NCBI GenBank assembly: GCA_965205505.1 | Contig: CBDBHB010000006.1 | Location: 32,001 to 96,000 of the forward strand | DNA: 64,000 bases | Origin: Acidobacteriota bacterium | GTDB taxonomy: Bacteria > Acidobacteriota > UBA890 > WLXD01 | Direction: 5' to 3' | Shown: piece after piece, positions 1 to 25,578 of the stretch | How positions within the stretch are numbered: the stretch's first letter is position 1 | How the letters are laid out: the number at the start of each line of letters is the position of its first letter | Made by a program: the position numbers and the translations under genes | The notes under the pieces: model-generated | The model's database searches: none | The model's input: the letters and a program-made list of their open reading frames with translations, nothing else | Told to the model about the DNA's origin: nothing

Positions 1-1176
1 CGACTTCAGCCAGCCGTTCTGGTAGTGATGATGACCGCCTATGGCAGCCGGCGTACCGCTGCGCTTGCGATTGATCGCGGAGCCTACGACTTCTTCACCA
101 AGCCGATCCAGATCGACGAGCTGCGCGTCGTCATGGGGCGCGCTCTGGAGCGACGTCGCTTGGCGCGTGAGGGCACCAAACTGCGCGCCCGGGCGGGAGG
201 TGCCAGCAGTTTCGGCAACATGATCGGCAAGTCGCGGGCTATGCGACAAGTCTTCGAGACCCTAGGAAAAGTCGTGCGGTCGGACACCACCGTCCTCGTG
301 CTCGGCGAGAGTGGAACTGGCAAGGAACTCGTGGCGGAGGCCATTCACTTCAAGAGCAAGCGGGCCGACGGCCCGTTCGTGAAGCTGAACTGCGTGGCGA
401 TCCCCCAGACGCTTCTGGAAAGTGAGCTGTTCGGTCACGAACGAGGCTCGTTCACCGGCGCACACCAGCGCAAGATCGGAAAATTCGAGCTCGCAGACCG
501 CGGCACGATCCTGCTCGACGAGATCGGCGACATGACCCTCGAGACGCAGGCCAAGATCTTGCGCGTGTTGCAGGAGCGTGAGTTCGAGCGAGTTGGTGGA
601 GTGGCGACCGTGCGGGTTGATGTCCGGGTGGTGGCAGCCACTAACCGCAATCTCGCGCTCGAAGTACGAGAGGGGCGCTTCCGGGAAGACCTCTACTTCC
701 GTCTCAACGTCGTCACCGTGAATTTGCCGCCTCTGCGCGAGCGCATACAAGACATTCCGCTGCTGACCGAACACTTCATCAACGAGTCCAACGAGGCGCA
801 CGGCAAGCACCTGGAGCGCATCTCACCGGCGGCGCTCGATGCCGTGGTCGGCTACGCCTGGCCGGGGAACGTGCGACAGCTTCGCCACGCGGTCGAGCGT
901 GCCGTGATCTGGAGCGAAGGCGACGAGTTGCGGCGACAAGACCTACCGGCAGAGGTCGTGCGTGGATCGCTTGTTGCTGAGCGTGCCGCCCGCACCGGAA
1001 CCGACGATAGTCTGCCGATCACCATGTACCGCATCGAGCGTCAGATTCTGATCGACGCACTACGAAGCTCAAGCGGCGTCCAGGCGACGGCGGCTCGACG
1101 GCTGGGCATCTCCGAGCGCTCGATGTGGCACAAGGTCAAGAAGCACGGCATCGACGTCGAGCGGCTGAAAGGCTGA
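1..1176 (+). CDS. Sigma-54-dependent response regulator (NtrC/PilR-like), 5' end outside the window
   Basis: Frame open from base 1. End of receiver domain (MMTAYG...GAYDFFTKP), Walker A GESGTGKE, ESELFGHERGSFTGA, LLDEIG, WPGNVRQL, C-terminal Fis-type HTH. Confidence 0.93.
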   Translation, partial: RLQPAVLVVMMTAYGSRRTAALAIDRGAYDFFTKPIQIDELRVVMGRALERRRLAREGTKLRARAGGASSFGNMIGKSRAMRQVFETLGKVVRSDTTVLVLGESGTGKELVAEAIHFKSKRADGPFVKLNCVAIPQTLLESELFGHERGSFTGAHQRKIGKFELADRGTILLDEIGDMTLETQAKILRVLQEREFERVGGVATVRVDVRVVAATNRNLALEVREGRFREDLYFRLNVVTVNLPPLRERIQDIPLLTEHFINESNEAHGKHLERISPAALDAVVGYAWPGNVRQLRHAVERAVIWSEGDELRRQDLPAEVVRGSLVAERAARTGTDDSLPITMYRIERQILIDALRSSSGVQATAARRLGISERSMWHKVKKHGIDVERLKG

Positions 1177-1331
1177 GTCGGCGGCCCTGCCGCGCGCCCG
1201 CTTTCGGGGCGACTCTCACCCACTTACACAAGCGGTCGAAGCGCCCCCTGGCCGTTGTGGGCCATGCTTGTCCGCGAGAGTACCCGCCTGTCTGGTGGCG
1301 TCCCCACCTGGCATCGACGATCCCCCCGTAG

Positions 1332-1351
1332 CGTGTAGGAGTTTCTACACG
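1332..1351. promoter_or_regulatory. Palindromic enhancer-like site (TGT-N10-ACA), candidate bEBP upstream activating sequence
   Basis: CGTGTAG-gagttt-CTACACG inverted repeat about 240 bp upstream of a sigma-54 promoter; another TGTAGG half-site at 1355-1360. Confidence 0.65.
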
Positions 1352-1380
1352 TTTTGTAGGTAAGACGATAACGCTTGTGA

Positions 1381-1393
1381 TATCAGTGAGTTA
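1381..1393 (+). promoter_or_regulatory. IHF-like binding site
   Basis: TATCAGTGAGTTA matches WATCARNNNNTTR and lies between the putative UAS and the sigma-54 promoter. Confidence 0.5.
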
Positions 1394-1588
1394 CGGTGCA
1401 AAGATCAGTTTCGATCGGCGTAATGCACGGGCGGACGGGGGAGACGCTACCAGCACCTGGGTGGCCCAAGCTGGCCGGACAGAGGCTTGTAGTCGGTCGG
1501 GAAGTATTCGATAACCCCTTTTGTTGTAGTGACTTATGGTGGCGAAGCGTACTGCGTCCAGTCGCCTCGCGGGGCACGCGCCCGAGTT

Positions 1589-1604
1589 TGGCACGGCGGT
1601 TGCT
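1589..1604 (+). promoter_or_regulatory. Sigma-54 (-24/-12) promoter
   Basis: TGGCACGGCGGTTGCT is an exact match to TGGCACG-N4-TTGCW, upstream of the HTH/pilin array and just downstream of a bEBP gene. Confidence 0.85.
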
Positions 1605-1670
1605 TACTCCTCGGGTGTCGAGCTCGGCTCGGCGCCTACCCGAACCCCGCCAACATGGGAGTACGCAATC

Positions 1671-1889
1671 GTGCAGAAGCTGTACACCACCGAGACGCTC
1701 GCAGAGCTGCTCCAGGTCTCGCCGCGGACGATCCGTCGCGAGCGCAAGGAGGGCCGACTGCCGTTTGTCCGCGTTCGCGGCCAGATCCGCTATCGCGAAA
1801 GCGATGTGCGCTCATATCTCGAGCGCAACGCCAGTATGTCGCTGGACACGGATACGTTTGCTTCGCAGGCCAACTGGGGCGAGCGCTAG
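1671..1889 (+). CDS. Small excisionase/BldC-like HTH (HTH_17-type) DNA-binding protein 1
   Basis: GTG start after GGGAG; LYTTETLAELLQVSPRTIRRERKEGRLPFVRVRGQIRYRESDV is the typical winged-HTH pattern. Confidence 0.85.
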   Translation: MQKLYTTETLAELLQVSPRTIRRERKEGRLPFVRVRGQIRYRESDVRSYLERNASMSLDTDTFASQANWGER

Positions 1890-1963
1890 GTCCTAACAGG
1901 ATCTGTACTCGCACCGCAGTTGACCGAAACCCCGCAAGGGCGGGGAAAACACGGAGGCAATTA

Positions 1964-2182
1964 ATGCTGGGTCTTCACACGACAGAGTCTCTGGCCGAGT
2001 ACTTGCAGGTTTCGCCCCATACCGTGCGACGAGAGCGTGAGGCCGGCCGGCTACCGTACATTCGCATCCGCGATCTCGTCCGGTACCGCCCGGAGGACGT
2101 GGAGTCGTACTTGCAGAGTCAGTCGCAGGATCGCTACGACGCGACGCCGCCGTTCGGAGAGCGTGTCGCGGCGATTCGCTGA
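1964..2182 (+). CDS. Small excisionase/BldC-like HTH protein 2
   Basis: ATG after GGAGG; HTTESLAEYLQVSPHTVRREREAGRLPYIRIRDLVRYRPEDV. Confidence 0.85.
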   Translation: MLGLHTTESLAEYLQVSPHTVRREREAGRLPYIRIRDLVRYRPEDVESYLQSQSQDRYDATPPFGERVAAIR

Positions 2183-2250
2183 AGATGGCCTGCGTTCTGA
2201 GTCGAGGTGTGGGCGCCGGAAAGCCCCTGCCCTCGCCAAGGGAGAATTCC

Positions 2251-2865
2251 TTGAGCCGTAACGATGGCATGACAATGATCGAGATCACGGTGATTCTCGC
2301 CGTGCTCGGCCTACTGGTGGGGCTGGTTGCTACCGCAGCCGGAGACCTGCTGGAACAATCGCATGCCGTTCGAACCGGAGAGGAAGTTGACCGTATCGGG
2401 CGCGCGATCGTGGAGTTCTATGCCGACACCGGCTACTTCCCGCGCACCAACGATACGTTTGACGGACGGCCCGGCGATCAAGAGATCGGCGCGCTCATCA
2501 GCGCCGCTCAGCTGCCGCGAAGCACCGCCTCGACAGGACTCTGGGTCGAGTCAGACCTTGGACTTCTGGCGGAGCATCTTACCTACAACGGCAAGGGCTA
2601 CCGCGTTCGCAACCCGATTGACAACCGCGGCTGGGCCGGACCCTACCTGCCTCAGGCAGTGGGCGAGGACGGCTGGGCGCACGCCTACATCGTCAACGTT
2701 TTCTGGCTGGATGTCAGAAACGTCGTCGAGGAGGCCGATGGCACACGCCTCGGCGCCGTATGGGTGTTGTCGGCTGGGCCGAACGGGATCATCGAAACCC
2801 CCTATTACCAGCCGCGTGACAATGCTCGGCTCTACGGGGACGACATCGGTTTCCGACTGCAATGA
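2251..2865 (+). CDS. Type IV pilin-like / GspG-like protein 1
   Basis: Probable TTG start after AGGGAGA; class III signal G|MTMIE plus hydrophobic helix; C-terminal WAGPYL...DGWAHAY...VLSAGPNG...GDD. Confidence 0.85.
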   Translation: MSRNDGMTMIEITVILAVLGLLVGLVATAAGDLLEQSHAVRTGEEVDRIGRAIVEFYADTGYFPRTNDTFDGRPGDQEIGALISAAQLPRSTASTGLWVESDLGLLAEHLTYNGKGYRVRNPIDNRGWAGPYLPQAVGEDGWAHAYIVNVFWLDVRNVVEEADGTRLGAVWVLSAGPNGIIETPYYQPRDNARLYGDDIGFRLQ

Positions 2866-3719
2866 GAAGCATGGACAAGATCCGAAATAGCCGCGGCTTC
2901 ACGCTTGTGGAGGTATCGATCATCCTCATGGTCGTCGTTGTTCTGTCGGCCGCCATCGCACCGGTGCTCAGCAGCGTCGTCGCCAACGCGAGGCTGACCA
3001 CGGCGCGAGCCGAGATGATCGTCATCGGCCGGGCGCTGCAGCAGTTCATCGAAGATATTGGCTGCGTCTTTGTGCCGCAGAACGAAGCCTATCAGTCCAC
3101 CTCGAGTTCGGTGGGCGCGAAGCGCACCAGCGGGCGTAGCCGAAGCGCGGCCAGCAATGTCGTCATTGCGCCGGCTTCGACGACGCCGGCTCTACCGCCC
3201 GGCGGCGGCAGGTTGGAGGGCGGTTTCGTCGACACGAAAGCGCTGGGCACAGGATGCGGCAACCCTGACCTGTGCTACGGCGACGCCGTCGAGATTCTAG
3301 TTACCGCCGGCGACATCCCGGCCTTGGGCCCCGAAGGCGGAGAGCGCTGGGCAGAGCCGGTCGACGGTACGTGGGTGGACTTCTTCGAGTACTACCTGAT
3401 CTCCAACACACCCGGAAACGATCCCGGCCGCGCATTCGCGAGCCTGGCCGAGTGTGGCGATCCGGTAGCCAACACGCTCTCGCAGTTGCATGCCTGGGGC
3501 GGCGCCTACCTGAACATCGGTCACGGCGACCCGTGGGGCAACCGCTACGCCGCCAACGTTTATTTCCTGAGCCAGACGGACGGCATTGATGTGGTGGTGT
3601 TGTCGGCGGGACCGGATCAGGAAATCGATTCGAGATTCGAAATGGACGGGTTCGTACCCGGGGACGACGACATCGCGGTGTTGTTCTCGACTGGGCCCGA
3701 CAGCGTGCCGGGACGATGA
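2862..3719 (+). CDS. Type IV pilin-like / GspG-like protein 2
   Basis: RG|FTLVEV prepilin motif; WGGAYL...DPWGNRY...VLSAGPD...GDDD. Confidence 0.9.
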   Translation: MRSMDKIRNSRGFTLVEVSIILMVVVVLSAAIAPVLSSVVANARLTTARAEMIVIGRALQQFIEDIGCVFVPQNEAYQSTSSSVGAKRTSGRSRSAASNVVIAPASTTPALPPGGGRLEGGFVDTKALGTGCGNPDLCYGDAVEILVTAGDIPALGPEGGERWAEPVDGTWVDFFEYYLISNTPGNDPGRAFASLAECGDPVANTLSQLHAWGGAYLNIGHGDPWGNRYAANVYFLSQTDGIDVVVLSAGPDQEIDSRFEMDGFVPGDDDIAVLFSTGPDSVPGR

Positions 3720-3763
3720 CGATGCGTCGAGCCGGCCACGCCCGCAACCGCAGGGAGAAAGCG

Positions 3764-4618
3764 ATGACGAAACTGGGCCAGGGACGGCACCAGAATCACG
3801 TCGGTGAGCGCGGATTCACTCTGGTCGAGGTGTCGATCATCGTGATGGCCCTCGCGATCTTGTCGGCCATTCTGCTGCCGCAGGTTGGTGTTTTCTTGCG
3901 CGACGCGCGCTTCGCCCGCGTCCGCGAGGACGTTGCCGTGATCGGCGCTGCCATGATGCACATGCTGAAAGACACCGGCGAGAGCTCGTTCCACTCCAAA
4001 CCCATGGGTGGCTCCAGCTGGCGCTCGCCCGAGCGCTACTCCGAGGGCGGTGACGCTCCGCCGATTGGCCTGCTCATCGGCGATGGCGACACGCCGGATG
4101 GTCGTAGCGAGTTCTACGAGTGGCGGGAGCCGCTGGGCTCGACGGTGGGCGACGCCGGCACCGACCTTCCCAACGTGTGGTTGAGCGGCGGAATTGTCGA
4201 CACCTTTGCCAATCACCTGATCCAGAACTACCCGGGCGACCTTGCCGACGGCGGTACTGGCCCCGACTGGAAGCGGTATCGGACCCCCGCCGACATGGTC
4301 TCGGGCGATCACAGCTCGGGTGTACCTGGCGGATTGCACTTTGACGGCAGCAGTGGCCAGGGCTTCAACTCGGAGTTCGCCTGGCGCGGCCCCTATCTCG
4401 ACGCCGCGCGTCCGGATCCGTGGGGCAATCGCTACATGGCCAACGTCGCTTGGCTGACGGTGCCTCAGGGTGGCGACTCGGTCGGCTTTATCCGGCCAGT
4501 GTTCGTGATCTCGGCGGGTCCAGACGAAGAGCTCGATACGCCGTTCGGTTCCGTCGGCGGCTTCGTGCTCGGCGACGACGACATCGCCTTCCCGGTTTCC
4601 TACGGTTCCTTGCGCTGA
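3764..4618 (+). CDS. Type IV pilin-like / GspG-like protein 3
   Basis: ATG after AGGGAG (alternative start 3716); RG|FTLVEV; WRGPYL...DPWGNRY...ISAGPD...GDDD. Confidence 0.9.
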   Translation: MTKLGQGRHQNHVGERGFTLVEVSIIVMALAILSAILLPQVGVFLRDARFARVREDVAVIGAAMMHMLKDTGESSFHSKPMGGSSWRSPERYSEGGDAPPIGLLIGDGDTPDGRSEFYEWREPLGSTVGDAGTDLPNVWLSGGIVDTFANHLIQNYPGDLADGGTGPDWKRYRTPADMVSGDHSSGVPGGLHFDGSSGQGFNSEFAWRGPYLDAARPDPWGNRYMANVAWLTVPQGGDSVGFIRPVFVISAGPDEELDTPFGSVGGFVLGDDDIAFPVSYGSLR

Positions 4619-4628
4619 AGAGACTTCG

Positions 4629-5432
4629 ATGACCCGCACTCACCTCACGACGACGCGCACCGCACGGATGGGATTACTCCCGGCGAGCGCCAGCGGCTTC
4701 ACCTTGGTGGAGGTCACGATCATCCTCATAGTGCTGACCGTGCTGAGCCTCATCCTCCTTCCTGGGATCGGGAACTACCTGCGGGACGCGCGCCTGGCGC
4801 GTGCTCGGCAAGATATCGGCACGATCCAGGAGGCTATTCTGGTGTTCATGCGTGATACCGGAGAGGGTGTCTTCCGCCGTCTCGGCAAGGCCAACAGGGA
4901 TACGTCCTCCGGAGAGGACTACGAGCCCTCGAACCCCGACCCGTTCTTCACGGTGGGAATGCTGGTCAACGACGGTGACACTCCTGACGAGGGCAACGGC
5001 GACGACCTCTGGCTCTGGCGACGCCCGTACGATGGGCACGTGGTCGACACTCTTGCCAACCATCTCGTGCAGAACACGCCGGGCAACGAGCCGTCGGCGA
5101 GCTACCGGACTCCCGAGCACATGATCGCCGATGTGCCCTCCCGGAACGCTCCGTTTGCCAACCAGCAAGGGTTTGGCGCGCACTTTGCTTGGCGCGGCCC
5201 CTACGTGTCGGCGCCGGTGCGATCCGATCCCTGGGGAAATCGTTATGCGGTGAACGTTCTGTACCTGGATCCAATCGCCGACAGCGCCACCGAGGACAAC
5301 GCCGGCTACCGCTTCGATATCTTCGTGATGTCTGCGGGCCCGGACGAGCAGGTCGATACGCCGTTCGAGATCGACGGCGTGGTAGCTGGCGACGACGACT
5401 TAATCCGCGTGGTGTCCGGGGGCAGCCGATGA
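4629..5432 (+). CDS. Type IV pilin-like / GspG-like protein 4
   Basis: SG|FTLVEV; WRGPYV...DPWGNRY...MSAGPD...GDDD. Confidence 0.9.
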   Translation: MTRTHLTTTRTARMGLLPASASGFTLVEVTIILIVLTVLSLILLPGIGNYLRDARLARARQDIGTIQEAILVFMRDTGEGVFRRLGKANRDTSSGEDYEPSNPDPFFTVGMLVNDGDTPDEGNGDDLWLWRRPYDGHVVDTLANHLVQNTPGNEPSASYRTPEHMIADVPSRNAPFANQQGFGAHFAWRGPYVSAPVRSDPWGNRYAVNVLYLDPIADSATEDNAGYRFDIFVMSAGPDEQVDTPFEIDGVVAGDDDLIRVVSGGSR

Positions 5433-6109
5433 ACCCAGTGCTGGAAGCCGATGGCGGCCACGCGCGGGCTCGCGGTGCGCGCGGTTTCACGCTGCTGGAG
5501 ATCACCATCATCCTGGCGGTGATCGCCATTCTCGGTCTGATCCTTGCTCCGTCGGTCTTCAATTTCTTGAACCAATCGCGGCTCGCACGAGCGCAAAATG
5601 ACGTGCGAATCCTGGCCGACTCGGTCTTCGAGTTCTTTCGGGACAGCGGATTTCACGCCCAGTTCGGCGACGGCCAGCGGCAGAGCCACATCGCCCTGCT
5701 GGTCTCGCCCGGCGCCGTTGGCGAGGCGCGTCCCGGTGCAGAACCGTGGCTGAATACAGACCCCACCATGGTCGATTTCATCTCCAACCAGTTGGTCAAT
5801 AATCGGCCCTCGTCAGGGGACATCGGCTATCCGTTGAAGACGGCACTCAGCGGCTCGGGTTGGAACGGCCCCTACCTCAACGCGCACATGCAGAGCGATC
5901 CATGGGGCAACCGCTACGCCATCAACGTGGAGTACCTGTCGGTGAACCCCGGTGCCTTCGAGGCCGGCGGCGTGCAGCAGAAGCGGGCCGTATGGGCTCT
6001 GTCGGCAGGCCCTGATGGTGTCTTCGACACCCTGTACCCGTCGGCCGACGCGCAGCTGCTCGGCAACGCCGCTGCCAGCCCCCTCGACATCAGCGCCCGG
6101 ATCCAATGA
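5429..6109 (+). CDS. Type IV pilin-like / GspG-like protein 5
   Basis: ATGA overlap with the previous stop; RG|FTLLEI; WNGPYL...DPWGNRY...LSAGPDG. Confidence 0.9.
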   Translation: MNPVLEADGGHARARGARGFTLLEITIILAVIAILGLILAPSVFNFLNQSRLARAQNDVRILADSVFEFFRDSGFHAQFGDGQRQSHIALLVSPGAVGEARPGAEPWLNTDPTMVDFISNQLVNNRPSSGDIGYPLKTALSGSGWNGPYLNAHMQSDPWGNRYAINVEYLSVNPGAFEAGGVQQKRAVWALSAGPDGVFDTLYPSADAQLLGNAAASPLDISARIQ

Positions 6110-6237
6110 GGCGAGCTTCGCTCACCATACTGCAACCTAGCCAGCGCGATCGACGCCTCCAGGACCACCGCTATCGATCTTCTGATCGGAACGCGCGTTT
6201 TCGCCGGACATGGCGGGCCACCGCGCAGCGGCGCCGT

Positions 6238-6266
6238 TTGCGTACATTGTTAACGAACGGTAGGGT
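6238..6266 (+). promoter_or_regulatory. Putative sigma-70-type promoter for HTH gene 3
   Basis: TTGCGT-N17-TAGGGT upstream of the 6294 ORF. Confidence 0.4.
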
Positions 6267-6293
6267 CGAGTCCAACGTACAGAGATCGAGCGA

Positions 6294-6551
6294 ATGAGCC
6301 CAACAATAGGGTCGACGCAGATGGCGGATACAACCCTCTTCACCACCTTCTCACTGGCCGAGTACTTGCAGGTCAGCGCGAGGACGGTGCAGCGCGAGGT
6401 GGCTCGCGGCCGTCTCCCGTTCGTCATGGTCGGAGGACGCCGGCGCTATCGAAAGGCCGACGTCGAGTCCTACTTGCGCTCCCGCCTGCAGCGCTCGCGC
6501 TTCCGTGTGATTCAAGGCGGCCGAAGCCGGCACGCCTCCTCCTCGCTCTGA
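6294..6551 (+). CDS. Small excisionase/BldC-like HTH protein 3
   Basis: FTTFSLAEYLQVSARTVQREVARGRLPFVMVGGRRRYRKADV; start may be ATG 6321. Confidence 0.85.
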   Translation: MSPTIGSTQMADTTLFTTFSLAEYLQVSARTVQREVARGRLPFVMVGGRRRYRKADVESYLRSRLQRSRFRVIQGGRSRHASSSL

Positions 6552-7031: not shown

Positions 7032-7142
7032 ATCGACCGGACAGGAGCGGCCAACACCGGCCACGCGTCGTTGAGCTCCTGCGGTGGCCCGCATACGCTC
7101 CACCCAATTGTTAACCAAGCCTGGACCAGTTGGGGATCTCAC

Positions 7143-10075: not shown

Positions 10076-10130
10076 TCCGGTAATTAGTCACCTCAAGCTA
10101 TTTTTGGCCATTCTTGACCGCTCAGGATAT

Positions 10131-17434: not shown

Positions 17435-19242
17435 TCATGGGTTTCATGGATAAGCTGCGCGGCGGCGGTCGCGTCGGCATCGAGCTCGGACGCAGCGTGG
17501 CTGCCGCTGAGCTGCGAAGCGACCCGCCGCGTGTGGTCGGTGCCGGCCATGCCGCTCACGCCGGCTTCAGCGGTCGCGAGCTGGGGCAGTGGATTCGCCG
17601 TTGGTTCGAGACCGTGGGCATTGGCAGCCGAGCTGCGCGCGCCGTGGTGGTCGACGGCGATATCTACCACTACCTGGTCAACATGCCCGAGATGTCGGAT
17701 AGCGAGCGCCACTTGGCCGCAGGTGCCGAGGTGCGCAAGCTGGCGCCGGTTCCGGAGAGCCAGCTCGTGTACTCGCACATGGCGGTTGGCCATGTGACCG
17801 AGGGTGGGGTCGTCAAGCAGAAAGTACTGATCTCGGCGATCGACAAGTCGACGATGCGCAATGCCATCGACGCTGTCGAGGCTGCCGGCCTCAGCGCCGA
17901 TGCAGTGACCACGGTACCCGCAGCGTTGGCGCAGGCGATGGAGCTGTTACCGCCGATCGCCGGCGGCACCGCGATCGCTTACCTGTCGGCCGGCCGCTCC
18001 TACCTGTTGGTCTTCCAGGACGGCACCCTCGAGCTGGTGCGCGACTTTGCCCTGCGCGGCGAATCCGATTCGATGGCCGATCTGGTGGCCACCGAGCTGC
18101 GTCGCTCGTTTCTTTACTTCGGGCAGCGTGCCCAAGGCGCTACCGTGCAGCGGCTGGTGCTCGCCGGGCCCATGGAGGATCTCACCAACCTGGCGTCCCA
18201 CCTACGCGAGTCCCTTGGTGTAAACGTCGAGCTGTTCGATGTCAGCGACCACGTTGATCTGAACGGCGCCATTGACCCGATCGAGCAGCCGGCACTTGCG
18301 GTGGCTTTCGGGGCGGCGTCGATGGCCCGGAAAGACAGCGGCAACCTGGTGTCTCCCGAACAGGTCAACGAGGACCGCACCCGTCGGGTGATGTCGGTCG
18401 GCCGTGTGGCCGCCGCCGCTTTGTTGCTCTTCCTGGTGGGCTGGGGGGTGCTTGCCCTGCTGAACTCCGCAGTCAACAGCAATCGCATGGCGCAGGTACA
18501 GGAACAGGTTTCGCAGCGGCAGCTGGAGCTACGAGAGGTCCGCGCCACGGCGCAGGAGCGTTCGAATCACGCCGCACGGCGAGCACTGCTGGAGCAGCGC
18601 TCGCTCGAGACAACGCTGATGGGCGCAGTTCTGCAACGTCTCAGCCAGCGGGCCCCGGAAGAGCTCGTCATCGAGAACGTCACATGGCATCCGGTCGCCG
18701 GCCCGCGCGGTGAGCGCTACTGGGATGCCGTCGTCCAGGGCCTGGTGCTGGGCGACTCGCGCTCGGGCTCGCAGGCTGTCTTCAACCGTTTCTACAGCAT
18801 CATGGTGAGCGATCCGATCGTCCACGACGTGCATCTGATCGAACCGCTGGTGATCGGGTCGGAGGGCGCGCGCAGCGGCCCGGCGGTGTTGCAGCAGGCC
18901 CGACAGTTGAGCGCTCAGGGCGGCCGCTCCGCTTCCGGGGGAGCGTCATTCAACCGCAACTTCCAACGCGGCCCCGGCGCATTCGGTCCAATTCGGTCAC
19001 GGTCGTTCAATGACAGATCGTTCAGCAACGGGCGACCCGCGGTGACGCGCGACGATCGCAATAGCAGCCTGTGGCTGTTTGATCGACAGTGGCCCGGCCG
19101 CGGCGCGGTAACGAGTGGTCGCCGTGATCAGCAACCTCTACGTACCACGCTGGATGAACTGCCGGCCTTCGGCCCGACGGCAACGTCGGTCGGTTTCAAG
19201 GTCGCGGTTCAGCTCAGGTCGATCGCCGGAGGCGGACAATGA
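17431..19242 (+). CDS. PilM-PilN-like fusion (alignment complex)
   Basis: N-terminal VGIELG and actin-like PilM features (ELRRSFLYF, LVLAG), central TM helix, coiled coil and PilN-like C-terminus; lies before pilO. Confidence 0.72.
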   Translation: MIMGFMDKLRGGGRVGIELGRSVAAAELRSDPPRVVGAGHAAHAGFSGRELGQWIRRWFETVGIGSRAARAVVVDGDIYHYLVNMPEMSDSERHLAAGAEVRKLAPVPESQLVYSHMAVGHVTEGGVVKQKVLISAIDKSTMRNAIDAVEAAGLSADAVTTVPAALAQAMELLPPIAGGTAIAYLSAGRSYLLVFQDGTLELVRDFALRGESDSMADLVATELRRSFLYFGQRAQGATVQRLVLAGPMEDLTNLASHLRESLGVNVELFDVSDHVDLNGAIDPIEQPALAVAFGAASMARKDSGNLVSPEQVNEDRTRRVMSVGRVAAAALLLFLVGWGVLALLNSAVNSNRMAQVQEQVSQRQLELREVRATAQERSNHAARRALLEQRSLETTLMGAVLQRLSQRAPEELVIENVTWHPVAGPRGERYWDAVVQGLVLGDSRSGSQAVFNRFYSIMVSDPIVHDVHLIEPLVIGSEGARSGPAVLQQARQLSAQGGRSASGGASFNRNFQRGPGAFGPIRSRSFNDRSFSNGRPAVTRDDRNSSLWLFDRQWPGRGAVTSGRRDQQPLRTTLDELPAFGPTATSVGFKVAVQLRSIAGGGQ

Positions 19243-19904
19243 GTTGGTCGGATCTGCAACCCCAGGTTCGCGCTGCCATTCTCGGCATGGCGGTCCTGTT
19301 TGTGGCGCTCTTGCTCTGGTTGTGGTTCGTACAGCCGATGCGCGCGCGCGCCACAGCGGCCACCAACGACATCGAGGCGGCCGAATCACGGCTCGACCAG
19401 ATAGAGCGTGAGATCGAGAGCATTCCGCCCGCTGCACCGGCCGAGCGCGCCGCCTGGCAGAGCTCTAACGACGAGTTGATGAGCCGCCTCGGCCCGGAGT
19501 CGGAGCTCACCCTGCTAATCGAGTCGCTCGTACGAATGGGGGAGGCCGAGGGGATAGAGCTGTTCATCACCAGTGAGAGCGCCGCGCCGGTGGCCGGGAC
19601 CGGTGGTGCACCGCCGGAGTCTGCCCGCGTGATCGGCGCCGTGCCGGGCGCCAGTTACGTGCCGCTCAACTGCCGTGTGTTCGGCGACTTTATCGCCACG
19701 AGCCGCTTCATTGCTCAGGTCGGACGTCTCGGTTGGGTTGTAGAGGTGGCGGGCCTGGAGATGCAGCGCGCCTTCCCTGAAGTAGTTACCGATCTACGTC
19801 TACTCGTTTACTTCCGCCCCAGCACCACGGATGCCTCGTCTGGCGACGCGAATCCAGGTCGCTCCCGCGGACCCGTCGGAGCTCAGGGAGGCGGCAATGG
19901 GTAG
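19239..19904 (+). CDS. PilO/GspM/MshJ-like protein
   Basis: N-terminal TM helix, coiled coil, YVPLNCRVFGDF..RFIAQVGRL; operon position. Confidence 0.75.
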   Translation: MSWSDLQPQVRAAILGMAVLFVALLLWLWFVQPMRARATAATNDIEAAESRLDQIEREIESIPPAAPAERAAWQSSNDELMSRLGPESELTLLIESLVRMGEAEGIELFITSESAAPVAGTGGAPPESARVIGAVPGASYVPLNCRVFGDFIATSRFIAQVGRLGWVVEVAGLEMQRAFPEVVTDLRLLVYFRPSTTDASSGDANPGRSRGPVGAQGGGNG

Positions 19905-20484
19905 CCGAAACATCCTGACCGTGCTGATCATCGTCTTCGTGGCCGTGCTGCTGTACAACGCGCTCTACTTCACTGGAGTGGTGGGAACCTTCGGCGGCGA
20001 CACTGAGATCGGACCACTGACCCAGGATCCCAACCTGAGCCCACCGGGCTTTGAGCAGCCGGGGGCTACGCCCGGTCAGCGGCCGGTGCCGAGCTCACCG
20101 CGATCGCCGACCCAAGCGACGCAGCGCCGCGGCGAGTTGACCGCCGCCGATCTGACGATCGACTCGAACTGGGGTCGCAATCCATTTTTCACGCCGCGCG
20201 AGATCTGGGCGCTCGACAACTTCGCCCCGGTCTATGTCGATGCTGGCGTCAGGATGGATGAGGGCCTGTACTTGTCAGCGATCGTGACCGATAGCACTGG
20301 CCGCCGCGTAGCAGTGATCAACAACGAAGTCGTGACCGTCGGCGACAACATCGCCGGCATGCAGGTAGTCGAGGTAACCGATGAGACCGTGGTCTTCGCC
20401 TCTGGAGGACAACGGCATGTCTTGAGAATGGCTGACGCCGCGATCGGTCTGAGCTCGCGCAGCGGCACCGTCGGGAGGTACTGA
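19897..20484 (+). CDS. MshK/PilP-like protein
   Basis: N-terminal TM, Pro-rich linker, RNPF, LSAIV...VAVINNEVVTVGDNIAGMQVVEV; precedes the secretin. Confidence 0.68.
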   Translation: MGSRNILTVLIIVFVAVLLYNALYFTGVVGTFGGDTEIGPLTQDPNLSPPGFEQPGATPGQRPVPSSPRSPTQATQRRGELTAADLTIDSNWGRNPFFTPREIWALDNFAPVYVDAGVRMDEGLYLSAIVTDSTGRRVAVINNEVVTVGDNIAGMQVVEVTDETVVFASGGQRHVLRMADAAIGLSSRSGTVGRY

Positions 20485-22283
20485 TGAGCCCGCTGAGAGA
20501 TGGATTGAGGAGATCTGGGATGACAAGCCGAAGCGTACGAACGTCCCGTTGGAAGACGGCCGCCGCACTGCTACTTGCCGTTGCCGTGATTCCGGGTTGC
20601 GTGTCGCGTGGGTACAACAACGCCCAGGCAGCGCCGGCCACATCGGTAGCTGCAGCGCCCTCGCCGCCCAGCTCGGACGAGCCCGGGCGCCCGTCGTTCG
20701 ACGAGCTGAGTCCGCATGCGCAGATCGCCGAAGCACCGGCCACGTCGATCGAGGAGTCGCTCGACGACACCGGCTACGACCCCGGCCGCGCCTATAGCCT
20801 CAGGGTGCGCGAGACCGACGTGCGCGCCGTCTTGCTGGCGGTGGCGCGCGAGTCTGATTTGTCGATAGTCATCGAGCCGGATGTGTCCGGCGTAGTGACG
20901 CAGGACATCGTCAACGTGACGCTGCCGGTTCTGCTGGACAGCTTGCTGACCCCGCTCGGGCTCCAATACCGAGTCGAGAACGGGGTGCTGAAGATCCGGC
21001 TTCGGCAGATGGAGACACGCTTCTTCTTCCTCGATATCGTGCAGACCGACCGGAACGGCTCGCGTACGATCGGCGTAAGCACCGGTGGCCAGGGTAACAA
21101 TGGTGGCTTCAACGGTGGTGCCAACGGGGGCGCCGGTGGTATTGGCGGTGGTATTGGCGGTGGTCGACGCGGCGGCGGCGCCGCCAGCGGCGGCGGCTCC
21201 GCCTCCGTGCAGTCGAGGGATCCGAGCTTCATCTGGGACGACATTACTGAGGGAACTCTTTTTCTCATGGGCTCCGGATACGGCGGCGGTTTTGCCGGCG
21301 GTGGGTTCGATCCGCTTGATCCCAACCGCCAGCGGCTGCGCGGTGGGCTCGGTGGCTTCGGTGGCGGCGCGGGCTTCGGCAGCGCCGATGGCCCTGCGTT
21401 GCACGTCAATCGCAGCGCCGGCACGATCATGGTGCGTCATTATCCCGACGTGCTCGACGAGATCGGTGAGTACTTGGCGATGGTCGAGGAGATTGCCCAG
21501 CGACAGGTGCTGATCGAGGCGAAGATCGTCGAGGTGTTGATGCACCAGGAGTTTGCCGCCGGCGTCGATTGGAGTGCCGTGTTCACCGATCTTGGTCTGA
21601 CCGCTAGCCAGACGGTTGGCGCCAGCGGCCTGAACATCTTCCAGGCCAGTGTCCAGCGCCAGAACTTCAACGCCATCCTCGGTGCGATGTCGAATCAGGG
21701 CGATGTCGACGTGCTGTCGTCGCCGTCCGTCGTGACCCTGAACAACCAGGTCGCGCTGCTGAGCGTCGGTACGCAGGAGGTGTTCTTCACCACGCAGACC
21801 GTGTTCAACGCCCAGGGGGGACTGGCTCAGACGGTGACCAACCCCGGCACCGTCACCAACGGCGTCATCCTCTCGGTTACGCCGCAGATCTCGGCCGATG
21901 GTTGGATCACGATGAGCATCCAACCGGCGATCACCAGCCTCGCGGGCGAGGCGATTTCGCCCAACGGCGATCGCTTCCCGATCATGGACGTGCGTGTGAC
22001 CGACAACGTCATCCGTGTTCGGGAGGGCGAGACCATCTTTATCGGCGGTCTCCTTGAGGACGTCGCACGCGAGAGCGTGTCCAAGACCCCGATACTTGGA
22101 GACATCCCGATCCTGGGCGCGTTGTTCAGGCGCCAGGATCGCAGCACCCGCAAGTCAGACCTCATTGTGATGATCACCCCGACGATACTCAACGGCGACC
22201 GCATACGCGAGATCATGCGTGACCAGCTGCAGCGCCTCGAGATGCGCCGCCGCTCCCGCGCGGGTGCGCGTCGCGGGCAGTAA
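20484..22283 (+). CDS. Secretin (MshL-like, lipoprotein)
   Basis: Lipobox VIPGC; STN/N domains; Gly-rich inserts; QVLIEAKIVEV, GVDW, LSSPSVVTLNNQ, GVILSVTPQI, PILGDIPILGALF, LIVMITPTI. Confidence 0.92.
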   Translation: MSPLRDGLRRSGMTSRSVRTSRWKTAAALLLAVAVIPGCVSRGYNNAQAAPATSVAAAPSPPSSDEPGRPSFDELSPHAQIAEAPATSIEESLDDTGYDPGRAYSLRVRETDVRAVLLAVARESDLSIVIEPDVSGVVTQDIVNVTLPVLLDSLLTPLGLQYRVENGVLKIRLRQMETRFFFLDIVQTDRNGSRTIGVSTGGQGNNGGFNGGANGGAGGIGGGIGGGRRGGGAASGGGSASVQSRDPSFIWDDITEGTLFLMGSGYGGGFAGGGFDPLDPNRQRLRGGLGGFGGGAGFGSADGPALHVNRSAGTIMVRHYPDVLDEIGEYLAMVEEIAQRQVLIEAKIVEVLMHQEFAAGVDWSAVFTDLGLTASQTVGASGLNIFQASVQRQNFNAILGAMSNQGDVDVLSSPSVVTLNNQVALLSVGTQEVFFTTQTVFNAQGGLAQTVTNPGTVTNGVILSVTPQISADGWITMSIQPAITSLAGEAISPNGDRFPIMDVRVTDNVIRVREGETIFIGGLLEDVARESVSKTPILGDIPILGALFRRQDRSTRKSDLIVMITPTILNGDRIREIMRDQLQRLEMRRRSRAGARRGQ

Positions 22284-22302
22284 TGGATTTCGGAGGCCAG
22301 CA

Positions 22303-23664
22303 ATGTATCTAGACTTCCACGGGCTCATCGAGAAGCCCTTCAGCCTGACCCCCGACCCGAAGTACTTCTTCGCCTCGGGGTGCCACGCGGAGGCACGCGA
22401 TTTGCTGCGCTACGGTGTGCGTGAGCGCGAGGGCTTCATGTGCTTCGTCGGGGCAGCTGGCACTGGCAAGACGACGCTGCTGCGCACCGTGCTCGATGGC
22501 TTCGGCGACGACATCGTTACGGCGATCGTCCTGAACCCGTACCTGTCCGAGCAGGACTTGCTGCGCATTATCCTGCAGGACTTCGGCGTTGCCACGCGGG
22601 CCGAGTTCGAGGGTGGGCAGAGTCGGGAAGCGAGCAAACAGGAGCTCGTCGATCGGCTGAACGATTATCTGATCGGTCTCAGCATGCAGGGTCGCGCCGC
22701 GGTCCTCGTCGTGGACGAGGCGCAGAACTTGCCGCTGCCGGTCATGGAGCAGATCCGCCTGCTGTCGAATCTCGAGACCTCGAAGCAGAAGCTGCTGCAG
22801 ATTGTCCTCGCCGGGCAGCTCGGCCTGCGGCGGTTGCTCGCCTCCCCCGAGCTCAGCCAGCTGGCACAGCGGGTTTCCGTTCGCTACACGCTGCAGCCCT
22901 TCGGGCGTGACGAGGTCGGCCGCTACATCGACCATCGACTTCGCATCGCCGGCAGCGATGGCGACGTGGTGTTCGACGACGCGGCCCTCGACAGTCTGTA
23001 TCGTTATACGGAAGGTGTGCCACGCTTGGTCAACCTGTTGGGCGACCGCGCTTTGCTTGCCGGTTACGCGCAGCAGACTCGACTGATCGATGCCGGCATC
23101 ATCGATCGAGCCGCCGCCACACTCGATTTGACCGAGATGGGAGCAGCGCCGATCGAGCGGCCGCAGCCCATGCAAATGGTCTCGCAGCCGCAGGCACGGG
23201 AGCGGTCGGCGAAGCCAGTGCAGGCGCTCGCCGGCATCGTGCTGGCTGCTGCGGTCAGCGCCGGCGGCTACGCTGCCTGGAACGCAAACCAGACCACAGC
23301 GCTCGCCGATCCGCCGCCGCCGCGCGCCGAGGGCAGCCTCAGCGCGGCACCGAACGACGTGACCTTCGGGAGCGGCAATGTAGTCGTCGATCTGGCGATG
23401 CCGCAGAAACCCTTCACCGTTTATCTGAGCTCATTCCGGCAGCCCGACGATGACTACCTCGTCGAGCTGCGCGGACGTCTGAACGAAGCTGGGTACGTCC
23501 ACTTCCTGATCGGAGCCGACGTTCCCAGCATGGGCACGATGTATCGACTCACCGTAGGTGAATTCGACGATCAGGCCGCGGCACGCGAGACCGCCTCGAA
23601 GCTGAAGGAGTCGGGGCTCGCCCACGCCGAGGCAGTCGCTGTCGCCGACGCCACCGGGAGCTAG
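22303..23664 (+). CDS. ExeA/GspA/MshM-family AAA ATPase with C-terminal SPOR-like domain
   Basis: MYLDFHGLIEKPFSLTPDP, GAAGTGKTT, VVDEAQNL, GVPRLVNLL; TM helix then FTVYLSSF...YRLTVGEF. Confidence 0.88.
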   Translation: MYLDFHGLIEKPFSLTPDPKYFFASGCHAEARDLLRYGVREREGFMCFVGAAGTGKTTLLRTVLDGFGDDIVTAIVLNPYLSEQDLLRIILQDFGVATRAEFEGGQSREASKQELVDRLNDYLIGLSMQGRAAVLVVDEAQNLPLPVMEQIRLLSNLETSKQKLLQIVLAGQLGLRRLLASPELSQLAQRVSVRYTLQPFGRDEVGRYIDHRLRIAGSDGDVVFDDAALDSLYRYTEGVPRLVNLLGDRALLAGYAQQTRLIDAGIIDRAAATLDLTEMGAAPIERPQPMQMVSQPQARERSAKPVQALAGIVLAAAVSAGGYAAWNANQTTALADPPPPRAEGSLSAAPNDVTFGSGNVVVDLAMPQKPFTVYLSSFRQPDDDYLVELRGRLNEAGYVHFLIGADVPSMGTMYRLTVGEFDDQAAARETASKLKESGLAHAEAVAVADATGS

Positions 23665-23672
23665 GAAAGCCA

Positions 23673-24971
23673 ATGAGTGTCATCCTCGATGCCTTGAAGC
23701 GGGTGCAGGACGAGAACCGGCGCCGCGGCGCTGCACCAGTGGTGCCGGATCCGGGTCCGATGCACGGCTCGAACGCGCTGTTGCGCCGACTGAGAGCTCC
23801 CGAGGCCCCGCGGGTGTCCGTGCGTCGCCGGCCTGGACCAGCTGTTTGGATCGGGGCATTGGCCGCTACCGGCATCGCTGTCGTGGCGACGGTGCTGTGG
23901 TGGATGCAGCCGAGCTTCTCCGGCCCGCGAGCCAACGACGGCCGCGCGCTGTTGACGGATCTCACTGCGAGCCCGCGTGATTCGGTGCGTTTCCCGCCGC
24001 CGGACGCGGCCCGTGGTGGCGCTCTCGAGTCGTCCGGCGGCGACCTCGGCACGGGCGCTCTGATGGCGGGTGCGGAGCCGCTGCCGGGCGCGGCAGCCAA
24101 CCGCGAGATGAACGACCTTTCGGCCAACCTGCCCGAGATGCCGGCGGCGTCCGCGAATGCGAGCGAACGCCAACCCGAGCCCAGCTTCAGTCTCGAGGTG
24201 GAGGACCGAGCCGCAGCTTCGAGCAGCGGAAGCAACATCGACCTGACCTCGAACCGCCCCGCCGCCCCCAGCGCCAGGCGTGCGGCGCCCGGCCGCAGCA
24301 CGGCATCGGCTGGTGCAAACGTGGCTGCCGATCGCGGTCGTGGCGTGCCCCCTGCGAGCAAGACGCTCGTCGATCCAGGAGTCCGTGATGCCTTCGCGGC
24401 GGGCGTGCGTGCCCAGAAAGAGGGCGCGCTGGCTCGCGCCGAGGAGGCCTACAAGCGAGCGCTGCGGCAAGATCCGCACAACGCCAAAGTCAACGCAAAC
24501 CTGGGCGTTCTGTACGAGCAACAAGGGCGTTTGGAGGCGGCTGAGCGTCACTTGCGAGAGGCTACATCGGTCGAGCCCAACAATGCGTCGGTGCACAACA
24601 ACCTGGGCGTGGTGCTGTACCGCAAAGGCAACTACGATGGCGCGCTGATCGAGTTCAATCGCACCCTGTCGCTGGATCCGGAACGCCTCGATGCCTATAC
24701 CAACAAGGGTTTGATCTTCACTCGATGGGGACGCTACGAGGACGCAGAGCGCGCCTTCATGCAGGTACTGGCGCTGAATCCCGACGATCCGTTGGCCAAC
24801 TACAACCTGGCTCTGGTCTACGAGGAAGTCGGCGACGCCAGCCGCGCCGTCGACCACTATTATCGATTCCTCGCGGCTGGCGGAGCCAATCACCCGAAGA
24901 TTGCCCGCTACCTCTCTCAGCATCTCTCGTGGCTCGAGGGTCGCCTGAATGGTGGTGCCCAGCGTCGCTAG
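23673..24971 (+). CDS. MshN/GspB-like membrane-anchored TPR protein
   Basis: MSVILDALKR N-terminus, TM helix, multiple TPRs (ANLGVLY, NNLGVVLY, YNLALVY). Confidence 0.85.
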   Translation: MSVILDALKRVQDENRRRGAAPVVPDPGPMHGSNALLRRLRAPEAPRVSVRRRPGPAVWIGALAATGIAVVATVLWWMQPSFSGPRANDGRALLTDLTASPRDSVRFPPPDAARGGALESSGGDLGTGALMAGAEPLPGAAANREMNDLSANLPEMPAASANASERQPEPSFSLEVEDRAAASSSGSNIDLTSNRPAAPSARRAAPGRSTASAGANVAADRGRGVPPASKTLVDPGVRDAFAAGVRAQKEGALARAEEAYKRALRQDPHNAKVNANLGVLYEQQGRLEAAERHLREATSVEPNNASVHNNLGVVLYRKGNYDGALIEFNRTLSLDPERLDAYTNKGLIFTRWGRYEDAERAFMQVLALNPDDPLANYNLALVYEEVGDASRAVDHYYRFLAAGGANHPKIARYLSQHLSWLEGRLNGGAQRR

Positions 24972-25578
24972 TCGCGTCGGCAGGCTTTCTTGTCTGATGG
25001 CGCTCATGGTCTGTGTGGCCTCAACGGCCGTGCTCGCCCAGGGCATGTCGGAGCCCTGCGTCTATACCGCCGACGATGGCGCCATGGTGATTACCGACAG
25101 CGCCACGGACTCGAGCTGCCACCGCCGGTTGCCTACGATCTTCCGGCCGCCGGGTCGTCTGCGCCTTACGTTCGCTGTTGCGGAGCTCATCTCCTTGAGT
25201 CATGACGTCGCCGAGCGTGGTGGCGTCGACCACCGGCTCGTCGAGTCGCTGGTCGAGATGGAATCGGGGTTCAACCCGCGCGCCGTGTCCCGCAAGGGCG
25301 CCATGGGACTCATGCAGCTCATGCCGAACGTCGCCCGCCAGTACGGCGTCGACACGTCCTTCGATCCGTGGCAGAACCTGGATGCTGGCGTGCGCCACCT
25401 GCGCGGGCTGTTGCAGAGATACGACGGAGATCTCGAGCGCTCGCTAGCGGCCTACAACGCCGGTGAGGGCGCGGTGCGTCGCTACGGCGGCATACCGCCA
25501 TACGCCGAAACCCAGAACTACGTGCGCCGCGTTCTCTACAGGTATCGGCAGCGCGTTGAGGGTGTTCGCCTGCACTAG
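24949..25578 (+). CDS. Lytic transglycosylase (SLT domain)
   Basis: ESGFNPRAVSRKGAMGLMQLMP, LAAYNAG, PPYAETQNYV. Confidence 0.92.
   Translation: MVVPSVASRVGRLSCLMALMVCVASTAVLAQGMSEPCVYTADDGAMVITDSATDSSCHRRLPTIFRPPGRLRLTFAVAELISLSHDVAERGGVDHRLVESLVEMESGFNPRAVSRKGAMGLMQLMPNVARQYGVDTSFDPWQNLDAGVRHLRGLLQRYDGDLERSLAAYNAGEGAVRRYGGIPPYAETQNYVRRVLYRYRQRVEGVRLH

Follow-up and report, generated by a model that had tools for sequence, protein, structure and literature searches.

Which kind of machine is encoded by a type IV filament (T4F) locus that combines parts of several textbook systems, and what do five small helix-turn-helix (HTH) genes do among its pilin genes? These questions are raised by a locus at positions 1 to 25578 of a 64-kb stretch of an Acidobacteriota genome, with its start about 1.7 kb upstream of that stretch (hereafter the window, C6:32001-96000 of a nine-contig, 5.98-Mb genome, to which coordinates without a prefix refer). 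We consider it reasonably probable that the locus specifies one filament machine of Acidobacteriota resembling the mannose-sensitive hemagglutinin (MSH) pilus and working by the mechanism proposed below. All locus genes are co-oriented on the + strand: a sigma-54 regulator gene is followed by two HTH_17 genes, five pilin genes, three further HTH_17 genes, a pilin gene split by a TAG codon, a pilin remnant, another pilin gene and an ABC transporter trio, and then by genes for an ATPase, PilC, an eighth pilin, a PilM-PilN fusion, GspM/PilO-like and GspB-like proteins, a secretin, an ExeA-like ATPase, a TPR protein and a transglycosylase. Protein families were called with Pfam and NCBIfam models, and bit scores were read against the curated cut-offs. 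Many spurious open reading frames (ORFs) are present because the GC content of the window is about 64%, and genes were chosen by third-position GC, domain matches and conservation; the ORFs at 6106-6297, 7355-7621 and 8602-8838 were rejected, as their nonsynonymous divergence (dN) was close to the synonymous divergence (dS) or they lacked conservation. An earlier note on this DNA had listed a sigma-54 activator, tiny HTH genes, pilins, an ABC transporter and assembly genes, and all of these elements were found on the + strand by the two model collections, including the activator at 1-1176, the transporter at 10299-13516 and the assembly genes at 13607-25578.

Eight pilin genes (PIL1 to PIL8) could be aligned over their full length. 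Their large products (200 to 300 residues) share G/FTLVE-type leaders (the slash marking the cleavage site) and the motifs W-x-G-P-Y, D-P-W-G-N, S-A-G-P-D and G-D-D-D, and have the GspG fold with large insertions. PIL1 (2185-2865), the most divergent of them, has the leader ...G/MTMIE, a T2SSG match of 21.6 bits and an N-terminal TIGR01710 match. It is followed by PIL2 (2862-3719; N_methyl and T2SSG matches), PIL3 (3716-4618; an N-terminal TIGR01710 match and alignment with its paralogues), PIL4 (4629-5432; T2SSG, 23.3 bits), PIL5 (5429-6109; N_methyl and T2SSG), PIL6 (7703-8527), PIL7 (9137-10075; N_methyl and T2SSG) and the more distant PIL8 (16568-17434; TIGR01710, 23 bits), which has an extra C-terminal beta-rich part. 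The T2SSG matches of the pilins ranged from 16.5 to 23.3 bits, around the cut-off of 21, and their scores with TIGR01710, the GspG model, were 24 to 43 bits over the N-terminus versus a cut-off of 88.85. Since the latter scores fall so far below the cut-off, the pilins have the GspG fold and motif yet are not members of the GspG equivalog.

The fold was examined with an AlphaFold2 model of PIL4 built from 85 family sequences, which reached a mean predicted local distance difference test (pLDDT) score of 84.4. In an alignment-free search of 48,161 chains with this model, just two chains reached Z≥5, and both were major pseudopilins of type II secretion systems (T2SS), namely, Vibrio cholerae EpsG (Z 6.8, with 102 residues aligned at a root mean square deviation of 2.5) and PulG (Z 6.5). 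These Z values are modest and, for the predicted structure, agree with the GspG sequence motifs; the GspG-type C-terminal module proposed in the earlier note is thus supported by the model. A Foldseek search of the PDB with the PIL4 model gave no match at E≤0.001, the top entries being PulG and enterohemorrhagic Escherichia coli GspG at E values of 3.7 to 5.4. The PIL8 model, from seven sequences, was poor (mean pLDDT, 55.5). A pilin profile matched solved MshA over the N-terminal helix alone (23.8 bits), and the globular part matched GspG. In the pilin alignment (A3), the acidic residues D186, D242 and D243 are conserved; we take these to lie where GspG binds calcium.

The array had been described as seven intact and three broken pilin genes. 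Seven are indeed intact (PIL1 to PIL5, PIL7 and PIL8), and the broken ones proved to be the two halves of PIL6, interrupted by an in-frame TAG at 8237-8239, plus one N-terminal remnant (...HRGVTLIEV) at about 8948-8992 that is evident in translation. Contigs from four public sequencing runs were compared over positions 1500-10300. In three of the four, from three other studies, PIL6 codon 8237-8239 reads TGG (Trp), and it reads TAG in the run identical to the window; all four have the same arrangement across the deletion scar. Because three runs read TGG and all share the scar arrangement, the nonsense codon is recent and strain level, and the deletion older. Origin of the TAG from a mutated Tyr codon was rejected, as sister strains read TGG. 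The closest relative (about 80% identical in DNA) runs colinear with the window up to 8992, where about 7 kb of it holding more pilin genes (L058 3211-10186) is skipped, and we interpret the remnant as a deletion scar because the relative has those further pilin genes at this place.

To see how the paralogues are related, 43 pilins from seven genomes were placed in a tree. PIL1 to PIL6 each formed a supported orthogroup spanning genera, PIL8 formed a separate, distant clade, and the members from the downstream part of the array were more fluid, with PIL7, which belongs to this variable set, on a long branch. The dN values of the pilins against relatives were far below dS, among them those of PIL1, PIL2 and both halves of PIL6. 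PIL8 always follows PilC, and a pilin at the same position recurs in distant Acidobacteriota loci. The separate orthogroups, together with dN<<dS, indicate that PIL1 to PIL6 and PIL8 are long-kept distinct subunits and not interchangeable cassettes. The proposal that the subunits are selectable did not hold up on two counts: neither a recombinase nor an inverted gene nor an invertible segment was found, with one sigma-54 promoter per locus, and PIL1 to PIL6 are old, separately conserved orthogroups instead of variable cassettes. As a side observation, solitary copies or fragments of the pilin family lie far from the locus (C9:1021001-1021732 and C9:779796-780035), and single-pilin loci occur in relatives as well (e.g., L017-L019 and L024-L027), one solitary copy having an in-frame TAA.

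Upstream of the array, the PilR-like sigma-54-dependent response regulator (1-1176, its 5′ end cut by the window) matched Sigma54_activat (240 bits), AAA_lid_14, HTH_8 and part of Response_reg, and it is 51% identical to the N-terminal part of the PilR belonging to the type IVa pilus (T4aP) of the same genome. Its partner histidine kinase, with HisKA and HATPase_c, lies outside the window (L001:16279-17781). This pair directly precedes a -24/-12 sigma-54 promoter, TGGCACGGCGGTTGCT, at 1589-1604 on the + strand, which matches without a mismatch and is the sole perfect match to TGGCAC-N5-TTGCW in the 64 kb; HTH1, HTH2 and the pilin array follow it. The promoter is 67 nucleotides (nt) upstream of the HTH1 GTG, and all 11 family loci have it at the corresponding position ahead of HTH1. 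About 255 bp before it stands an element, TGTAG-N6-CTACA-N6-TGTAG (1334-1359, + strand), whose CTACA and second TGTAG columns are invariant in the 11-locus alignment, with further conserved blocks after them. The exact three-part element was found in six of nine promoter-spanning sequences and at least one half in all nine, once per locus. This element is probably an activator binding site, presumably bound by the adjacent regulator, and together with the promoter it has the usual layout of an enhancer-dependent promoter.

Looser sigma-54 matches (e.g., 5174-5189, 1992-2007 and 6355-6370), all inside coding sequence, were treated as chance; their total of 36 was reached in 1 of 100 shuffles. 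The array yielded neither a second sigma-54 promoter nor an intrinsic terminator, and terminator and sigma-70 scans of 1100-13700 returned fewer sites than shuffled sequences and none between genes. Given that no inner sigma-54 promoter or terminator was found, we predict that HTH1 through PIL7 (about 8.5 kb) are transcribed mainly as a single unit. Two AT-rich gaps, of 51% GC ahead of the ABC genes and of 36% GC ahead of the ATPase gene, probably hold separate promoters.

The five tiny HTH_17-like genes reported earlier all exceeded the Pfam PF12728 cut-off of 27 bits. HTH1 (1671-1889, 72 residues, GTG start) scored 56.5 bits, HTH2 (1964-2182, 72 residues) 41.6, HTH3 (6294-6551) 51.0, HTH4 (6771-7031) 35.6 and HTH5 (7143-7358, with a likely GTG start at 7143) 31.5 bits. 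All five are under purifying selection: the dN/dS of HTH1 was about 0.02 to 0.11 against six relatives, that of HTH2 derives from a dN of 0.02 to 0.20 versus a dS of 0.30 to 1.13, and dN<<dS held for HTH3, HTH4 and HTH5. A longer HTH5 frame from the TTG at 7071 is unlikely because a 4-nt insertion after 7089 in sister strains would break it; contigs of two runs from other studies carry this insertion (+CGCA) and a +T after 6990, in the nonconserved tail of HTH4.

HTH1 also matched TIGR01764 (41.5 bits). With the BldC model (NF033787), it scored 29.4 bits, the range for HTH1 to HTH3 being 21.8 to 29.4 bits (cut-off, 77); neither HTH4 nor HTH5 matched this model, so the five are not members of the BldC family. 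The 5.98-Mb genome holds 25 HTH_17 matches, 6 of them within 10.7 kb at the locus. The sixth of these (L001:14620-14850) is of a more ordinary type and lies on the opposite strand, upstream of the kinase gene and of a gene for a secreted protein; another ordinary HTH_17 protein, of 116 residues and outside the locus subfamily, is encoded at 32316-32666. Within this genome the locus subfamily is confined to the locus (100 to 125 bits, with the next best match at 34.6). Neither the proteins of window positions 1 to 31 kb nor seven ORFs of the upstream 18 kb included a partner integrase or recombinase. A motif, TTGTTAAC, present in two inner intergenic regions was rejected since it is not conserved in relatives. 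The HTH proteins are thus real, locus specific and under selection. From where their genes stand, behind the promoter, and from what such domains do (BldC being an example), we infer that they are co-transcribed BldC/Xis-like regulators of the locus.

The ABC trio comprises a GldA-like ATPase (10299-11270), a GldF-like permease (11286-12083) and a GldG-like auxiliary protein (12080-13516), all on the + strand. They matched ABC_tran, ABC2_membrane_2 and ABC_transp_aux (87.5 bits) in Pfam and TIGR03522 (288.8 bits), TIGR03518 (119 bits) and TIGR03521 (38 bits) in NCBIfam, in each NCBIfam case below the cut-off. The trio adjoins the same pilin family in loci of other Acidobacteriota and of Victivallales/Lentisphaerae. 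From this synteny across phyla and the PilGHI precedent in Myxococcus, as presented in the accessible part of PMC6060248, we argue for a functional link between transporter and pilins.

Next in order is the assembly ATPase (13607-15361; T2SSE, 386.8 bits), which is PilB/MshE-like and has an N-terminal MshEN cyclic di-GMP (c-di-GMP) motif (58.5 bits; NF053729, 46.1 bits, above the cut-off of 38). Two RLGxx[LV][LV]-type repeats, which we take to be the c-di-GMP motif consensus, are visible in its sequence, and MshEN is also found in the T4aP PilB of the same genome, to which the ATPase is 41% identical. Its scores with the PilB model (TIGR02538; 523 bits versus a cut-off of 676) and the GspE model (522 bits) were nearly equal, and among solved chains PilF/PilB entries of the PDB scored 465 to 412 bits versus 334 bits for GspE. 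Among its named relatives, 31 of 38 are called PilB, and the 60 listed of 814 matching records in a tblastn search of plasmids bore only GspE or generic names.

The platform protein (15315-16571), which is PilC/GspF/MshG-like, has two T2SSF repeats (162 bits). Beyond PIL8 lie a PilM-PilN fusion (17431-19242; PilM_2, 35.4 bits, with weak matches to TIGR01175 and the Amuc_1101 family), an architecture that we take to be like that of GspL or MshI, and a PilO/GspM-like protein (19239-19904; T2SSM, 28.8 bits versus a cut-off of 27.8; PilO, 18.2 bits, below its cut-off). A small membrane protein in the MshK position (19831-20484) has a weakly GspB-like C-terminus (T2SSB, 23.3 bits versus a cut-off of 28.4); its gene is conserved in relatives with dN<<dS, and the PilB-like ATPase is likewise under purifying selection.

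The secretin (20484-22283; Secretin, 140.8 bits), with a Gly-rich linker, is a probable lipoprotein, as judged from its signal (...AVAVIPG/C). TIGR02519 (MshL) was its best model at 203 bits (cut-off, 250), ahead of the GspD model TIGR02517 at 165 bits (cut-off, 351) and the PilQ model at 151 bits, and 21 of 31 named relatives are called MshL. Against solved chains it scored 117 to 107 bits with GspD and 89 to 64 bits with PilQ. In a quick tree, with rows drawn from the query's own matches and four long-branched outgroups, it fell in a 22-row clade (SH-aLRT 99) with proteins of Gammaproteobacteria and Methyloversatilis named MshL by the Prokaryotic Genome Annotation Pipeline (PGAP), apart from E. 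coli GspD (SH-aLRT 99), HofQ and the genome's PilQ and other secretin. The MshL-type lipoprotein secretin suggested in the earlier note is in line with the best model, the names of relatives and this clade.

The remaining genes encode an ExeA/MshM-like AAA ATPase with a C-terminal SPOR peptidoglycan-binding domain (22219-23664; AAA_22, 90.4 bits; SPOR, 35.1 bits), a TPR protein in the MshN position (23673-24971) with matches to many TPR families, best with a PilW model (104 bits, below the cut-off), and a lytic transglycosylase (24949-25578; SLT, 98.3 bits) whose place at the locus end is kept in relatives. The best model for the ExeA-like protein was that of the PEP-CTERM-associated ATPase (TIGR03015; 266 bits versus a cut-off of 324.5), and BLASTP gave no match to E. 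coli GspA at E≤1e-3. Neither a prepilin peptidase nor a retraction ATPase is encoded in the locus, and no GspC, GspH-K, PilT, PilP or PilY1 was recognized in it by Pfam, NCBIfam or BLASTP against E. coli proteins; matches to E. coli GspC and GspH-K in BLASTP were limited to the N-terminal helix.

A single Peptidase_A24 match, indicating one prepilin peptidase genome-wide, was found at C6:270007, about 210 kb from the locus, adjoining a separate canonical T4aP cluster with PilT. This Myxococcus-like cluster encodes PilB, PilT, PilC, PilS, PilR, PilA, an ABC transporter and PilD (C6:266-284 kb), with PilMNOPQ on another contig (C8:~215 kb). In this cluster (C6:266001-284000, L073), PilT is split into overlapping ORFs (L073:13978-14721 and 13656-14168), PilR is split as well (8987-9838 and 8420-8932), and the ABC ATPase has just 158 residues; the splits may be real frameshifts or assembly indels. 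A third T4F-like set at C6:284001-300000 (L074) encodes a PilC-like protein, a 545-residue ATPase with MshEN, two uncharacterized proteins, a 728-residue secretin with TPR and cohesin domains and a 374-residue pilin-like protein.

How widely is this arrangement conserved? In a pattern scan of one genome per species, the pilin family occurred in 61 loci, mostly of Acidobacteriota (several labelled Vicinamibacterales), with a few in Victivallales/Lentisphaerae, Planctomycetota and others. It was present in all 10 genomes of the window's family, with 6 to 17 matches each, and in 29 of 401 Acidobacteriota, including the window's genome and the unpublished genome G071, when at most seven candidates per genome were scored. 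The order of regulator, two HTH genes, pilins, three HTH genes and pilins recurred in nine loci of six assemblies and in four further relatives, the number and positions of the HTH genes in at least five genera, and the whole locus order in five of the six relatives' contigs examined. Synteny of HTH and pilin genes, the absence of which from other genomes the earlier note had named as an argument against its proposal, is therefore present in the related genomes searched. The HTH subfamily (≥77 bits) was found in 10 of 10 family genomes, usually in five copies, and in none of 390 other sampled Acidobacteriota, six of which gave 51- to 53-bit HTH matches in frames of about 200 to 250 residues. 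Conservation is thus strong but narrow, with the HTH-pilin association limited to one family.

Versions of the locus that lack the HTH genes exist in at least seven other Acidobacteriota loci (L009, L020, L022, L029, L030, L034 and L035). Between them, these have the ABC trio, secretin, ExeA-like and TPR proteins, 4 to 13 pilin matches, PilM-N, the PilO-like and small proteins, the sigma-54 regulator, the ATPase, PilC and a PIL8-like pilin. Among the relatives, G005 (C1:26001-66000, L067/L068) and L003 keep the regulator, and the second pilin set, the ABC genes, the ATPase and PilC are missing from this place in part or entirely, G005 also being without the remaining machinery; either real decay or assembly collapse at repeated pilin sequences would account for this loss.

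On the preferred reading, a signal sensed by the kinase would lead the regulator and sigma-54 to turn on the 8.5-kb HTH-pilin operon. The shared prepilin peptidase encoded elsewhere in the genome would cleave the pilins, c-di-GMP would license the assembly ATPase, and the platform of PilC, PilM-N and the GspM-like protein would polymerize the pilins into a filament passing through the lipoprotein secretin, which the ExeA-SPOR ATPase, the GspB-like protein, the TPR protein and the transglycosylase would help to place through the wall. Instead of serving as alternative cassettes, the conserved pilin paralogues would assemble into a mixed filament, some as major subunits and others in priming or tip roles. 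The five HTH proteins, made with the pilins, would tune transcription of the locus; they might, for instance, give architectural help at the sigma-54 enhancer or exert feed-forward control over the ABC and machinery operons. Several observations weigh against an MSH-like machine of this design. PIL6 carries a nonsense codon in this strain, and none of the 38 named ATPase relatives is called MshE. The matches to the MshL, GldA/F/G, PEP-CTERM ATPase and PilW models all lie below the curated cut-offs. No known minor-pilin set (GspH-K, FimU/PilVWX or MshB-D/O-Q) was recognized with Pfam, NCBIfam or E. coli BLASTP, so the priming roles given to pilin paralogues are a guess. The inner intergenic regions yielded no HTH-specific repeated motif, and at this place the machinery is missing from G005 and the L003 assembly, where the HTH genes and first pilin set are retained.

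In the leading alternative, the locus encodes a type II-like secretion machine, in which the GspG-fold pilins would form a short periplasmic endopilus pushing protein or polymer cargo through the secretin, with the ABC transporter supplying or handling the cargo and no surface pilus made. Such a machine would suit the GspG fold and T2SSG motif of the pilins, the GspL-like fusion beside a GspM-like platform protein recognized by T2SSM, the ExeA-like and weakly GspB-like proteins, the higher scores of the secretin with solved GspD than with PilQ, the lack of a retraction ATPase in the locus and the synteny of the ABC trio with the pilin family across phyla. We nevertheless regard it as unlikely: GspC and GspH/I/J/K were recognized neither by the models nor in the E. 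coli comparison, the secretin groups with MshL-named proteins and not with E. coli GspD, the MshEN-bearing ATPase is more PilB- than GspE-like, and 6 to 17 large pilin paralogues per genome are unlike a scheme with a single major pseudopilin and four minor ones. It is also doubtful, in our estimation, that the locus represents a separate lineage outside the T4aP, T2SS and MSH models, restricted to some Acidobacteriota and a few bacteria of the Planctomycetes-Verrucomicrobia-Chlamydiae (PVC) group and marked by large GspG-fold pilins and a GldAFG-type ABC transporter, with the HTH quintet wired in as a new regulatory layer in one family; the quintet could then be enhancer-architecture proteins or set the ratio of pilin paralogues.

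Two further rivals concern parts of the locus. The HTH_17 genes might be excisionases left behind by mobile elements, or small, unrelated regulators that play no part in the filament, given that HTH_17/TIGR01764 is the excisionase family, that the genome has 25 such matches and that a miniature inverted-repeat transposable element (MITE) sits at the locus end. This is highly improbable in view of the purifying selection on all five genes, the same number and positions in at least five genera, a subfamily found nowhere else in the genome, the place of HTH1 and HTH2 as the first genes behind a conserved sigma-54 promoter, and the lack of an integrase or recombinase in the locus or the seven upstream ORFs scanned. 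A store of alternative major subunits for phase or antigenic variation would likewise be a surprising explanation of the pilin array, although in close relatives that have the downstream set the HTH trio is followed by anywhere between 2 and about 8 pilin matches, nonsense codons fall in different pilins of different genomes, and N-terminal pilin segments share 70 to 77% DNA identity, which could allow recombination. Against it stand the co-orientation of the genes behind one promoter, the lack of pilin-flanking inverted repeats, recombinase or silent cassettes, the one-to-one orthology of PIL1 to PIL6 across genera at low dN/dS, and the same arrangement in independent strains of three other studies.

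Hardly any work has been done on the surface machines of Acidobacteriota, an abundant and mostly uncultured group. A conserved T4F system with parts from three textbook types is a test of how those types are delimited, and it raises the question of why six or more separately conserved GspG-fold subunits are kept per filament. The association of five small HTH genes with a sigma-54 pilin operon, in every sampled member of one family, is new: literature searches found no paper linking HTH_17 to a pilin and, for Acidobacteria and these components, none describing such a locus in the phylum. In public pipelines, parts of it already bear the labels MshL, PilB or "hypothetical" pilin. Practical consequences are modest, and the functions given here are predicted from sequence.

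At its 3′ end the locus is bordered by the MITE-like element (25572-25934; 363 bp), directly after the last gene, which has perfect 37-nt terminal inverted repeats and nested imperfect palindromes. It gave 145 match rows at dozens of sites in its own genome, one of which (C6:284092-284452) adjoins the canonical T4aP cluster. The genes beyond are unrelated and encode a SAM methyltransferase, a FAD-dependent oxidoreductase and a type III polyketide synthase (25998-28908, + strand), followed by a heavy-metal P-type ATPase on the - strand (28963-31218).

How, then, does the locus compare with known systems? The small HTH proteins resemble BldC/Xis-type (MerR-like) HTH_17 proteins in their size (about 70 to 85 residues), in having a lone HTH_17 domain with no effector or dimerization domain, and in matching TIGR01764 and, weakly, the BldC model. 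They differ in being five paralogues inside a pilin operon with no known link to recombination or development. BldC itself is described, in the accessible part of PMC5859096, as a 68-residue MerR-like protein whose multimers bind direct repeats.

The order of regulator, pilin and ABC genes pointed out in the earlier note matches the myxobacterial T4aP layout (pilS-pilR-pilA-pilGHI), in which tandem arrays of up to seven pilA genes occur in some myxobacteria, according to the accessible part of PMC6060248. As in the Myxococcus type, a kinase and sigma-54 regulator directly precede the pilins and an ABC transporter directly follows, and the locus ATPase is closest to PilB. In contrast to that type, the locus lacks PilT, PilP, separate PilMNOP genes, a PilQ-type secretin and FimU/PilVWX/PilY1, its pilins are GspG-like, and HTH genes are present; the genome holds its own separate cluster of the Myxococcus kind with PilT and PilD. 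With the T2SS, the locus shares the GspG fold and C-terminal acidic motif of the pilins, a fused PilM-N (GspL-like) protein with a GspM-like platform, an ExeA-like ATPase with a peptidoglycan-binding domain, a weakly GspB-like protein and the lack of a retraction ATPase. It differs from the T2SS in its many large pilin paralogues, in a secretin apart from E. coli GspD, in an ExeA-like protein without a BLASTP match to E. coli GspA, and in that no GspC or GspH/I/J/K was recognized.

In the TFF-SF models, as given in the accessible text of Denise et al. 2019 (PMC6668835), an MSH system is a single locus with mshA, mshE and mshG, along with mshL and mshM, as mandatory genes and no peptidase. The main text of that paper reports MSH in Gamma- and Epsilonproteobacteria and Chrysiogenetes only and does not include Acidobacteria, and the searchable part of its supplements mentions Acidobacteria only in remarks on Tad, so that such systems may be listed there. 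The phylum of our host thus lies outside those for which MSH is reported in the accessible text. Further differences from the MSH systems of Vibrio and related bacteria are that the pilins are of GspG fold, 200 to 300 residues long and 6 to 17 per genome, instead of an MshA/B/C/D/O/P/Q set; that the genes for the ATPase and platform precede those for the platform accessory proteins; that the locus includes a kinase/sigma-54 regulator pair, an ABC transporter and five HTH genes; and that the relatives of the ATPase are annotated PilB and not MshE. The likenesses are a single locus without a prepilin peptidase gene, an MshEN ATPase, a platform protein and an ExeA-like MshM ATPase in that same locus, a lipoprotein MshL-type secretin, a TPR protein in the MshN position, PilM-N-like and PilO-like proteins, a small protein in the MshI/J/K position and several pilins. 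The mixed hallmarks noted earlier are real, and "chimera" is a fair description of the locus because an MSH-like gene content and MshL-like secretin are joined to an ATPase with PilB-named relatives and to pilins like T2SS GspG. Judged by its predicted gene content, the machine is MSH-like, and among published definitions that of MSH fits it best.

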